A DNA stretch of 14,504 nucleotides from a virus (taxonomy: Duplodnaviria; Heunggongvirae; Uroviricota; Caudoviricetes). A program made the position numbers. Shown here one piece after another: positions 6,001 through 8,537 of the stretch. Where the stretch lies: positions 1-14,504 of IMG/VR virus record IMGVR_UViG_2529292834_000008; one strand, written 5' to 3'. Every line of letters begins with the position of its first letter. The first letter of the stretch is position 1.

Positions 6001-8537
6001 ATTCATTGCTTCCTCCCAAAATTGTAGGGGATGGCATCTTATTTGCCGTAGCTGATGGTGTAGGTTCATACACTGGTGCCAGTCAGGCTTCATCAATGGC
6101 AATTGCTGAACTTTCAGCATTGACAAGCTTATCTTTTGACACAGTTCCGGATGTATTTGATGAAGTTAAGCGAAAGGTTATGTCGTTAGCTGATGTTAAT
6201 GATGAGTTCGATAAAGCTGCTACTACACTTACGTTTTGTTATGTTTGTGATAGCGGAATTATTATTGGTCATATTGGTGATTGTCGTTTGTATTGCATTG
6301 GAGAGAAGAAAGCATACCAATTGACGAAGGACGATACCAGGCATCAGATGCTAATTGATCAGAATATTTTTAAACCCAGAGATTTGAAGGATAAACCGGG
6401 CAAAAATATCTTAACGACGGCTATAGCCTCAAATGTTGATATGGAATACGACTGTGATTTTATCACATGGAAAGATTTACCTAGTATTAACGGGGTATAT
6501 CATCTGTGTATCATGTCTGATGGGGTTCATAACGTTTGGGAAAAACGCCCCAGATTTACATCAAATACGATGAGTAATAGTCAGAAGTTTTCTAATGGCA
6601 TTTTGCGTCGTATAGAGAGAGCCGGACCTGATGATGACTTTTCTTTAGTAAGTATAATGGTGCGTGTGACGTCAGATTAGTTGTATAAACTCAGTAGGGA
6701 ATGCTAATTTCACATACAACATAGTTAAAGAAAACTTAATTTTAATGTAAAAAGGCTGCCCTCAGGCGGTCTTTTTATGCTCGAAAATTGATGCAGTACG
6801 TTAAACGCGCTGGTGGTTGCGAATACCGGTCTTTCAGCTTGCTGGCTTTTTAGACAAGAGTTATTGGTATGTCACGTTAACCAGAAAAGGGAAAAAGACA
6901 TGCTAAAACAGCAGGATATGACCGAAACCGCCAGAGTGGTGTTTAATGAATTAAGCGTCACCGAACCGGCGACCGTCGGGGAAATTGCGCAGAATACTTA
7001 CCTTTCACGCGAACGCTGCCAGTTAATCCTGACCCAGCTTGTTATGGCGGGTCTGGCAGATTATCAGTTCGGTTGTTACAGACGCCTTCTGCAGTGAAGG
7101 CTTTTTAATTTGTGGTAATGGGCGGCTGGTGGGTGTTAGCGGCACCTGCCAGCCATCTGCTCATGCGTTGGGGTCACAAGCAAACCTCAGGCCCATCTGC
7201 TTTGCGCAAAAGCAGTATGAGCCTATCAGAGAAGTGCTTATTGATCTATGACTAATACTGTAAAAATATCCAGTTGTGAGTTAATCAACGCTGATTGCCT
7301 GAAATTTATCCAGACCTTACCGGAAAACTCTGTCGATCTGATAGTCACAGACCCGCCATACTTTAAAGTGAAGCCCGAGGGCTGGGATAACCAGTGGGAG
7401 GGCGACGATGATTACCTGAAATGGCTGGACCAGTGTCTGGCGCAGTTCTGGCGGGTACTGAAGCCTGCCGGAAGTCTTTACCTGTTCTGTGGTCATCGCC
7501 TGGCATCTGACACCGAAATCATGATGCGTGAGCGCTTTAATGTGCTGAACCACATTATCTGGGCGAAGCCGTCCGGACGCTGGAACGGGTGCAATAAGGA
7601 AAGTCTGCGGGCGTATTTTCCGGCAACAGAGCGCATTCTGTTTGCAGAACATTATCAGGGACCGTATCGCCCGAAAGATGATGGCTATGTGGCACAGGGG
7701 CGCGAGCTAAAACAGCACGTCATGGCCCCGCTGATTTCTTACTTTCGTGATGCGCGTAAATCACTGGGAATAACGTCAAAACAGATAGCGGAAGCCACCG
7801 GAAAGAAAAACATGGCTTCGCACTGGTTTGGTACCAGTCAGTGGCAGTTACCGAACGAGGGTGATTACAACAAATTGCAGGCGTTGTTTGCGCGTGTTGC
7901 GGCAGAAAAACATCAGCGCGGGGAACTGGAAAAACCACACCACCAGCTGGTCAGCACATACAGTGAGCTGAACCGGCAGTATACGGAATTGCTGAGTGAA
8001 TATAAAAATTTGCGGCGGTATTTCGGTGTGACGGCGCAGGTTCCGTACACCGATGTCTGGACGCATAAACCGGTGCAGTACTATCCAGGGAAACATCCGT
8101 GCGAAAAACCGGCAGAAATGCTGCAGCAGATAATCAACGCGAGCAGTCGTCCGGGAGACCTGGTTGCAGATTTTTTTATGGGTTCAGGTTCAACGGTAAA
8201 AGCGGCGATGGCACTGGGGCGTTGTGCGATTGGTGTTGAGCTGGAGACAGGACGTTTTGAACAGACAGTCAGGGAAGTTCAGGATTTAATCGTTTGAAAC
8301 GGATGAGATTGCAGAATTAATTACGCACCATTATTATTCTGCTCCCGGCCCTTTAGCTCAGTGGTGAGAGCGAGCGACTCATAATCGCCAGGTCGCTGGT
8401 TCAAATCCAGCAAGGGCCACCAACCGTCACCAGTTCATCAGGAAAGAGCGTCAACCCTTTAAGTTGAGTGTGCGAGGTTCGAGTCCTCGGTGGCGGGCCA
8501 GTGCCGACTTAGCTCAGTAGGTAGAGCGACTGACTTT

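Follow-up and report, generated by a model that had tools for sequence, protein, structure and literature searches.

Immediately upstream of the DNA methyltransferase gene in the stretch of viral DNA analysed here (IMG/VR record IMGVR_UViG_2529292834_000008, positions 1 to 14,504; we refer to this whole stretch of 14,504 nucleotides (nt) as the window) there is a conserved leader RNA of ~135 nt, and comparison of related loci gives good support for its folding as a three-way junction (helices P1–P3) followed by a hairpin (P4). The methylase is an already known enzyme at its usual place, being by sequence a member of the M.EcoGII family and a near-orthologue of M.EcoGII itself, and it is the leader, apparently an undescribed structured RNA, that is the new element at the locus and the added value of the analysis. 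Overall, we think it probable that this is an M.EcoGII-type methylase expressed late and dependent on the antiterminator Q, that it provides bulk anti-restriction methylation, and that the leader constitutes a second layer of control. The features of the methylase, its leader and the small gene preceding them are:

7248–8297, + strand: M.EcoGII-family beta-class N6-adenine DNA methyltransferase, 349 amino acids (aa) (Pfam N6_N4_Mtase, E=2e-44, residues 29–340)
7112–7247, + strand: conserved structured leader of the methylase mRNA, ~135 nt (RNAalifold, covariance model R1 and pair counts)
7119–7123 with 7191–7195, + strand: leader helix P1, UGGGC with GCCCA (RNAalifold)
7124–7135 with 7143–7154, + strand: leader helix P2, including a Chi site at 7125–7132 (RNAalifold)
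7156–7161 with 7179–7184, + strand: leader helix P3 (RNAalifold)
7197–7203 with 7209–7215, + strand: leader hairpin P4 (5-bp stem defined by eye and tested by pair counts)
7219–7223, + strand: invariant GAGCC of the leader
7236–7247, + strand: pre-start segment of the leader
6900–7097, + strand: small 65-aa gene, phrog_331 (ATG at 6900 to TGA at 7097, with an AGGG Shine-Dalgarno sequence 8 nt upstream)
7084–7106, + strand: hairpin P0, GCCTTC-TGCAGT-GAAGGC then TTTTT, an intrinsic terminator and the third of the locus (terminator scan)

The motif order of the methylase is that of the beta class, as the initial annotation had read it, with DPPY N-terminal (residues 35–38; nt 7350–7361), the recognition domain central, and an FxGSG motif C-terminal, within D-F-F-M-G-S-G-S-T (residues 308–316, nt 8169–8195; FMGSG is residues 310–314 and FxGxG nt 8175–8189). 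It is identical to M.EcoGII at 316 of 350 positions (~90%), both proteins being 349 aa with no large indels, when compared to a reference sequence machine-read, with a few read errors, from the supplement PDF of PMC11551740. It is also 89% identical to the methylase of phage 1720a-02, an enzyme called 'very similar' to M.EcoGII by Murray et al. 2018 (PMC5778455), and 85% and 70% identical to two reconstructed ancestors, both of which retain DNA methylation (PMC11551740 Tables S1, S3). M.EcoGII is a beta-class enzyme of 349 aa whose gene lies on a prophage of E. coli O104:H4 C227-11 (PMC5778455); like its 95%-identical paralogue M.EcoGI, it lacks sequence specificity, is not expressed in the lysogen and does harm when made constitutively (PMC5778455; reviewed in PMC12707154), and constitutive M.EcoGII leads to slow growth and unstable clones (PMC5778455). 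Because of the 90% identity to M.EcoGII and the activity of the 85%- and 70%-identical ancestors, we would expect the product of 7248–8297 to methylate adenine in essentially any sequence context, and for a near-orthologue of a non-specific enzyme there is probably no recognition motif to predict. An in-frame UGA two codons before the methylase AUG (UGA-UCU-AUG, 7242–7250) is conserved in nearly all copies, and the methylase therefore has no N-terminal extension.

The region between the small gene and the methylase (7100–7245) had been described as a GC-rich untranslated stretch. It is indeed a non-coding gap of ~150 nt, but it is hardly GC-rich (51.4%, compared to 48.5% for the whole window), and instead of a passive spacer or a simple operator for the small protein it contains a conserved structured RNA leader. 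In an alignment of ten phages, the segment 7100–7247 is more conserved than the small open reading frame (ORF) and has hairpins with compensatory changes. We gathered additional loci, 48 from bacterial assemblies (one genome per species), 80 from metagenomes and a further 65 from viral contigs, the last with a divergent methylase as query. RNAalifold applied to a MAFFT alignment of 46 leaders not fitted to any model gives the three-way junction of P1–P3, together with only two loop-proximal pairs of P4 and not its 5-bp stem. A covariance model built on this structure (R1) has its match directly before the methylase, on the + strand, in 77 of the 80 loci from metagenomes and in 42 of 54 from viral contigs.

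Pair counts in model-fitted alignments of 47 distinct copies from diverse phages and prophages show 93.6% of cells to be paired, compared to 75.9% in column shuffles and 26–41% with slid partners. Twenty-one of the 28 base pairs change on both sides, there are 220 double-change cells (58.7 ± 7.5 in shuffles), and the covariation score is 0.442 as opposed to 0.131. Individual pairs are represented by three to five pair types; examples are columns 43/64 in P2 (AU 11, UA 9, GC 7, UG 7, CG 4), columns 79/109 in P3 (CG 25, UA 19) and columns 139/182 in P4 (UA 23, GC 18, CG 4). Many of the pairs in the leader helices are G-U, and the functional strand is therefore that of the mRNA. The leader of the window has a fold z-score of -4.6. 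It persists in the 16 of 51 loci that do not have the small ORF, and is thus independent of the small protein.

The leader matches no Rfam 15 family when the window is searched at the gathering threshold, and at E≤10 over 6650–7350 there are only weak sub-threshold chance matches at 6708–6896 and none over 7112–7247; seven other leaders (L225, L258, L251, L270, L278, L220 and L009) similarly give nothing over the leader at E≤0.1. The extension of P3 (7162–7163 with 7177–7178) is a tandem C.A/A.C mismatch that is conserved in the enterobacterial copies and becomes C-G/G-C pairs in loci L038, L142 and L251; the mismatch may be a functional internal loop. A diverged leader can be recognized by eye in L055, a prophage of the marine Alteromonadales Catenovulum sediminis (2330–2480), with compensated P2 and P4 and with GAGCCU complementary to the Shine-Dalgarno region AGGCUC. 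The next gene after the methylase there encodes a 276-aa protein containing an HNH motif (3658–4488).

The 15 nt before the methylase ATG contain no GGAG-like Shine-Dalgarno sequence, and the segment GCUUACUGAUCU-AUG-AAAAAUACUGUAAAAAUA is nearly invariant across genera. In the minimum free energy (MFE) fold of the window sequence, the loop and 3' arm of P3 (AGGUCA..AAGC) pair with positions -12 to -1 of the methylase start, and the 5' strand of P1 pairs with GCUCAU inside P3. This alternative partner of AUGGGC in P3 is complementary in 91.8% of cells across all clades; in L258, where the P1 strand is GUGGC, both GCCAC partners are altered along with it. The mean energies of the two folds are similar, at -56.3 and -53.3 kcal/mol. 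The GGUCA and UGAUC motifs are co-present or co-absent among clades, and in the enterobacterial copies GGUCA:UGAUC and GUGAGC:GCUUAC pair in 93–94% of cells; we regard these putative start-occluding helices as candidates for the enterobacterial clade only. A GGCCCAC:GUGAGCC helix is weaker still (71% of cells) and was rejected. With modest confidence, we infer that the leader gates translation of the methylase by switching between a start-occluding fold and a junction fold, which would prevent synthesis from stray transcripts and allow it late in infection. A more elaborate proposal, which we put forward as tentative in all of its parts, is that the leader belongs to an undescribed class of regulatory RNAs for promiscuous phage methyltransferases, acting as a bistable three-way-junction switch that would restrict synthesis to the late transcript; the P1 5' strand AUGGGC would pair either with GCCCA to form the junction or with GCYCRU in P3, thereby freeing the loop that covers the start. 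The trigger could be a small molecule such as S-adenosylmethionine or S-adenosylhomocysteine, a protein of the phage or the host, or how fast the Q-modified polymerase moves.

Several reading frames and small RNAs were considered at the leader and set aside. A 70-aa ORF with a TTG start (7039–7251), which the initial annotation had thought probably spurious, does exist and overlaps the methylase start as ATGA; it is spurious, since only 11 of 47 loci keep its frame free of stop codons over 45 or more codons before the ATG (median 35). The frame of a 47-aa ORF across the leader (7112–7255) is likewise not conserved. A leader peptide starting at the AUG in AAUGGGCGG would have seven codons in most copies and 45 in the window, but the sequence does not vary at any codon position, and the Shine-Dalgarno spacing is only 2 nt, both of which argue against it; no upstream ORF was found that terminates at the conserved in-frame UGA at -6. 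The prophage small RNAs AgvB, AsxR and StxS are located downstream of stx or at PR', their sequences differ, and their Rfam models miss the window. A promoter scan of 7000–7250 yielded no promoter-like site, and a TGTGRAAAT 'extended -10' recognized by eye before the methylase was dropped because many copies have a G at the critical -11 position.

The small ORF is a real gene under purifying selection, with a median ratio of non-synonymous to synonymous substitution rates (dN/dS) of 0.10 over 164 sequence pairs. It is present in 35 of 51 loci, usually ending ~150 nt (149–199 nt) before the methylase ATG. In the other 16 loci it is absent while the leader and methylase are retained, and it is therefore an optional companion; phage Flotzy has just a remnant. 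We recovered ~335 clusters of homologues, and among the matches listed every named organism is of an enterobacterial genus. Function is unassigned for phrog_331, and many of the homologues are named 'TrmB family' by NCBI, but the TrmB profile matches the small ORF only below threshold (E=0.002; 18 bits, with a cut-off of 25.6 bits). Two cluster members carry PF17782, a DprA-like winged-helix domain, and profile matches to the PDB are weak (2obp, E=0.25; the N-terminal domain of DsyB, E=0.014). The AlphaFold2 model is of low confidence (mean pLDDT 68) and has helices at residues 2–18, 26–31, 37–49 and 59–64, the last being short and C-terminal; a Foldseek search of the PDB with this model found nothing at E≤0.001 (best E 4.6). 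There is no HTH_3/Xre match in Pfam, no hit in NCBIfam and no Cys4 zinc finger, the only conserved cysteines being C40 and C59. The ORF is thus as real as originally supposed, but its helix-turn-helix (HTH) character is only weakly indicated, by sub-threshold matches.

The stop codon of the small ORF (7095–7097) lies within the terminator hairpin P0, partly in its loop and partly in its 3' arm, such that a ribosome finishing the small ORF would melt the hairpin; it is plausible that translation of the small ORF promotes read-through of the terminator. The small protein might also bind the leader. A rearranged locus is seen in phage phiSTEC1575-Stx2k (L010, 2591–2972), which retains the small ORF and about 50 nt of the 5' part of the leader; the remaining leader and the methylase are swapped for an HTH-domain gene upstream of tRNAs and stx2k. 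This partial leader indicates a recombination breakpoint inside the leader.

The window derives from an E. coli lambdoid prophage, and nt 1290–9894 share 99.9% identity with a prophage located next to ompW/trp in NZ_LR883050. On the + strand, the gene series starts with hok/sok, a Doc/Fic toxin, DUF968 and RusA, followed in order by Q, a terminator, a moron, a terminator, the small ORF, a terminator, the leader, the methylase, tRNAs, holins and terminase. The features surrounding the methylase module are:

4342–5031, + strand: late-gene antiterminator Q (Pfam Phage_antiter_Q, E=5e-84; PGAP annotation of the 99.9% identical prophage)
5078–5105, + strand: tR'-like intrinsic terminator ~47 nt past the Q stop (terminator scan; 8 pairs, 5078–5099, then a T run)
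5176–6680, + strand: Ser/Thr kinase (5176–5940; Pfam Pkinase, E=3e-33) and PP2C phosphatase (5937–6680; PP2C_2, E=2e-14)
6750–6777, + strand: second terminator-like hairpin, GGCTGCC-CTCA-GGCGGTC then TTTTT (read from the sequence by eye)
6809–6816, + strand: Chi site GCTGGTGG 5' of the small ORF (exact octamer, kept in E. coli phage copies)
8347–8656, + strand: tRNA cluster directly 3' of the methylase, within one late transcription unit with it (four tRNAs by ARAGORN, three by Rfam at threshold)
9122–10156, + strand: lysis genes, two holins and an M15 endolysin (Pfam; PGAP)
11497–14093, + strand: terminase (Pfam; PGAP)

Q opens the late region, and the late operon includes the methylase module, since the lysis genes and terminase follow it on the same strand; the methylase had been assigned to the late region at the outset, and the position of Q upstream and of the tRNAs, holins and terminase downstream agrees with this. 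The recurring order is Q, a variable insert, the small ORF, the methylase, (tRNAs or stx) and lysis genes, as in phiP27, SfV, cdtI, mEp460, Citrobacter phiNP, Flotzy, 1720a-02, a Klebsiella phage and many Stx2 phages. A promoter-like TTGCAA-N17-TACATT (5017–5045), read by eye, overlaps the end of Q, with a strong terminator ~50 nt downstream, and the segment 5017–5105 appears to be laid out like a PR'/tR' unit giving a short transcript, as for lambda 6S RNA or the Stx-phage StxS. Homology of the module with other phages starts at the 6750–6777 hairpin, and phage copies have a GC hairpin and T run directly after Q. The pairing of P0 is kept with changed sequence elsewhere (e.g. GCCTCC/GGAGGC and GCTGCC/GGCGGT). 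By eye, it is followed by at least five U in the E. coli/Shigella copies and in some Enterobacter, Citrobacter and Kosakonia copies, and by UUUCUG or UUCCUG in the remainder; an automatic count of these U-tracts is confounded by additional outer pairs in the MFE folds.

The kinase and phosphatase genes are a moron placed between Q/tR' and the methylase module and do not belong to the module; in other phages the same slot contains a GIY-YIG nuclease or other genes. With PADLOC, the eukaryote-like kinase gives matches to the defence kinases mad6, PD-T4-6 and Stk2 (with E as low as 1e-39), and it probably forms, with the PP2C protein, a phage-exclusion module carried by the prophage. Additional cargo for defence or addiction includes AbiH (303–914, - strand; Pfam E=6e-48), the hok/sok type I toxin-antitoxin system (1310–1485, + strand; Rfam sok, 122 bits) and the Fic/Doc toxin (2040–2534, + strand). 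ARAGORN reports a second tRNA-Lys at 8424–8500 that is below the Rfam tRNA threshold and without PGAP annotation in the 99.9% identical genome, and may be a degenerate tRNA copy. Chi octamers (GCTGGTGG) are frequent, with twelve in the 14.5 kb compared to 0.54 expected from shuffles, eight of them on the + strand (positions 1041, 2965, 3149, 3555 (-), 3607 (-), 6809, 7125, 7940 (-), 9086, 9436 (-), 12134 and 12602). This density of about one per 1.2 kb is several times that usual in E. coli, and suggests selection for RecBCD protection in the prophage.

In lambdoid phages, only Q-modified polymerase should reach genes situated behind such terminators, and this would account for the reported silence of M.EcoGII in the lysogen. 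We therefore envisage the following course of events. Transcription from upstream would be blocked by the three predicted intrinsic terminators, keeping the methylase silent in the lysogen and sparing the healthy lysogen chromosome a toxic enzyme. Upon induction, Q-modified RNA polymerase would read through the terminators, the methylase would be made alongside the lysis and packaging proteins, and replicated phage DNA would be bulk-methylated before packaging, such that progeny DNA could withstand many of the adenine-sensitive restriction systems that it meets in the next host. The second layer would be provided by the leader, whose junction, hairpin and GAGCC abut a start without a Shine-Dalgarno sequence, and a switch in its fold would gate translation; in the lowest-energy fold of the window a leader loop is predicted to cover the 12 nt before the AUG, and the junction fold uses part of the same sequence. 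The analysis establishes the family of the enzyme, the order of the genes, the terminator-like hairpins as sequence predictions, and the structure of the leader with its conservation; non-specific activity of this copy, Q-dependence, the anti-restriction role, translational gating and the trigger of the switch are inferred. Bulk adenine methylation of progeny DNA as a general anti-restriction device has been proposed by Murray et al. (PMC5778455) and in a 2025 review (PMC12707154), and evasion of restriction, the first of the roles offered in the initial annotation, appears to be the likeliest.

Several observations weigh against this interpretation or parts of it. The 90% identity is only approximate because some of the mismatches may be read errors in the M.EcoGII text, and the ~34 substitutions are concentrated at residues 140–260, with many in the central recognition domain. 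In the accessible literature, anti-restriction by the M.EcoGII family in a native phage is assumed and not shown. The alignments used for the pair counts were fitted to the covariance model, which biases them toward the structure, although the unfitted alignment gave the same helices and the divergent L139 and L220 replace whole arms. The energy gap between the two folds ranges from -15.8 to +7.2 kcal/mol among the sequences, and a common switch is therefore not demonstrated; with fixed columns in the diverse set, GGUCA:UGAUC and GUGAGC:GCUUAC do no better than shuffles.

A different role would be that of a sequence-specific orphan similar to Dam, CcrM or YhdJ, marking a motif for epigenetic control of phage or host genes. 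Its beta-class fold is shared with CcrM and YhdJ, the best NCBIfam matches are the YhdJ and CcrM models, and the best sequence matches in the PDB are sequence-specific beta-class enzymes such as M.RsrI and CcrM. However, the scores are far under the equivalog cut-offs (110 bits and 292 for YhdJ, PRK11524; 71 and 830 for CcrM), the enzyme is 90% identical to one shown to have no sequence specificity, and a gene placed behind terminators in the late operon is unlikely to be expressed in the lysogen, which is where epigenetic control would be exerted. We consider this quite unlikely, and the epigenetic option of the initial annotation, at least as a Dam- or CcrM-style role, is accordingly disfavoured by the closeness to M.EcoGII. 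That the gene is the modification half of a restriction-modification system with a nearby endonuclease is extremely unlikely; the best PADLOC model is MTase_II, labelled 'Type II methyltransferase' (E=4e-159), but among all sizeable ORFs of the 14.5-kb window Pfam and PADLOC identified Q, the kinase, PP2C, holins, an M15 peptidase, terminase, DUF968, RusA, Doc/Fic and AbiH, and no restriction endonuclease, and among the neighbours in more than 50 related loci (tRNAs, stx or holins downstream; Q or morons upstream) there is no such partner either. The description of the methylase as an orphan enzyme is thus correct in that it has no restriction partner, but it is not uncharacterised, given its ~90% identity to M.EcoGII.

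It is very unlikely, in our view, that RNA (rRNA or mRNA) is the main substrate with the small protein as a specificity subunit, as claimed for M.ECPA8_3172P-PNB-2. M.EcoGII does act on RNA in DNA:RNA hybrids and, weakly, on single-stranded RNA (PMC5778455, PMC11551740), a two-gene layout with a small companion is present here, and a two-subunit phage rRNA methyltransferase has been reported (bioRxiv 10.1101/2023.09.20.558713). But the RNA rate of M.EcoGII is ~100-fold below its DNA rate (PMC11551740 Table S3), the small ORF is missing in 16 of 51 loci, and the reported rRNA enzyme is an unrelated pair (208 aa and 143 aa) beside the integrase of phage PA8 with no significant similarity. M.ECPA8_3172P, reported to be non-specific on its own (Gong and Koudelka 2023 preprint), shares with the present system the pairing of a methyltransferase with a small companion in Stx phages, but is encoded in the early left arm (PA8 nt 2228–3282). 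Identity of the two systems was rejected (gp5 and gp6 of PA8; BLASTP E=0.7), since that pair differs in locus and size and lies beside the integrase.

A reading compatible with the Q-dependent anti-restriction interpretation is that the small ORF encodes a dedicated regulator of the methylase acting at 7100–7247, either as a C-protein-like DNA binder or as a Com-like RNA activator. This is possible but rather doubtful. Its fixed position ~150 nt upstream in 35 of 51 loci, strong purifying selection, weak winged-helix similarity and the analogy to Mu com-mom would be consistent with such a function. Set against these are the good conservation of the leader and methylase where the small ORF is missing (e.g. 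in Flotzy), the lack of an Xre-type HTH or Cys4 zinc finger, the low-confidence structure model without fold matches, and the retention of the small ORF in phage Stx2k despite replacement of the methylase. In place of a palindromic C-box there is an inverted repeat before the leader that varies in sequence but keeps its pairing, and this is RNA-like, not operator-like. The conserved stretch could instead act as DNA, as a Chi recombination hotspot and protein-binding site. P2 has an exact Chi octamer as its 5' arm, and in enterobacterial copies this arm is nearly invariant while the 3' arm varies, the window has 12 Chi sites where ~0.5 are expected, and the orientation of the site at 7125–7132 suits RecBCD entry from the lysis/cos side. 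However, the hairpin is kept without Chi in L139 and L220 (arms CUGCGGCCACG/CGUGGCCACAG) and in clade 2 (arms GCUGCAGCAUG/CAUGCUGCAGC), so a DNA-level role as the main constraint is unlikely; moreover, pairing is kept through G-U wobbles that are possible only in + strand RNA, and four helices covary.

The closest known systems are M.EcoGII and M.EcoGI, which resemble the window enzyme in length (349 aa), sequence (~90% identity), beta-class layout, prophage location and lack of a restriction partner; the close relative in phage 1720a-02 occupies an identical slot of Q, small ORF and methylase. The ~34 substitutions set the window allele apart, and its activity is predicted from the sequence; the leader, small ORF and terminators are absent from the descriptions of M.EcoGII in PMC5778455. 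The Hia5/M.HaeV group (Drozdz et al. 2012, as cited in PMC5778455) is also phage-derived, methylates adenine almost regardless of context and is presumed to counter restriction, but according to the account in PMC5778455 its members are of the alpha class with the opposite motif order, and have an unrelated recognition domain and belong to another sequence family.

The arrangement also resembles phage Mu com-mom in some respects. Expression of mom is late and under transcriptional and translational control, with a structured leader at the start codon, and the small product of the upstream com gene opens the leader hairpin. Both systems have a toxic DNA-modification gene silent in lysogens, with a small ORF upstream and a structured leader abutting the start, and mom and M.EcoGII have been paired as silent, toxic genes (PMC12707154). 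However, Mom is not a methyltransferase, Com is a zinc-finger protein, and com overlaps mom, whereas here there is no zinc finger, the gap is 150 nt, the small ORF is dispensable in a third of loci, and the leader is a three-way junction and not a single hairpin. As in riboswitches and attenuators, the leader has a multi-helix junction with invariant joining nucleotides and covarying stems directly 5' of the start, and mutually exclusive pairing; it differs in having no Rfam match and in that its expression-platform helices are clade-specific, and any regulatory effect is predicted from sequence.

M.EcoGII is a widely used reagent in chromatin-accessibility and proximity-labelling methods, and ~40% of complete E. 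coli genomes carry relatives of it, frequently in several of their prophages (the methylase module is in 2185 of 5426, with a median of two copies); in many Stx phages these relatives lie directly upstream of the Shiga toxin genes. No description of how such a toxic genome-wide methylase is kept off in the lysogen and turned on late was found in the accessible literature. For annotation, 'non-specific adenine methyltransferase, M.EcoGII family' is preferable to 'site-specific DNA-methyltransferase', and no recognition motif is to be expected for such genes in methylome data. The covarying leader at the methylase start provides a concrete, testable handle on control of the methylase, and is a well-supported candidate for the short list of phage-specific cis-regulatory RNAs, possibly representing a new riboswitch-like class in enterobacteria.

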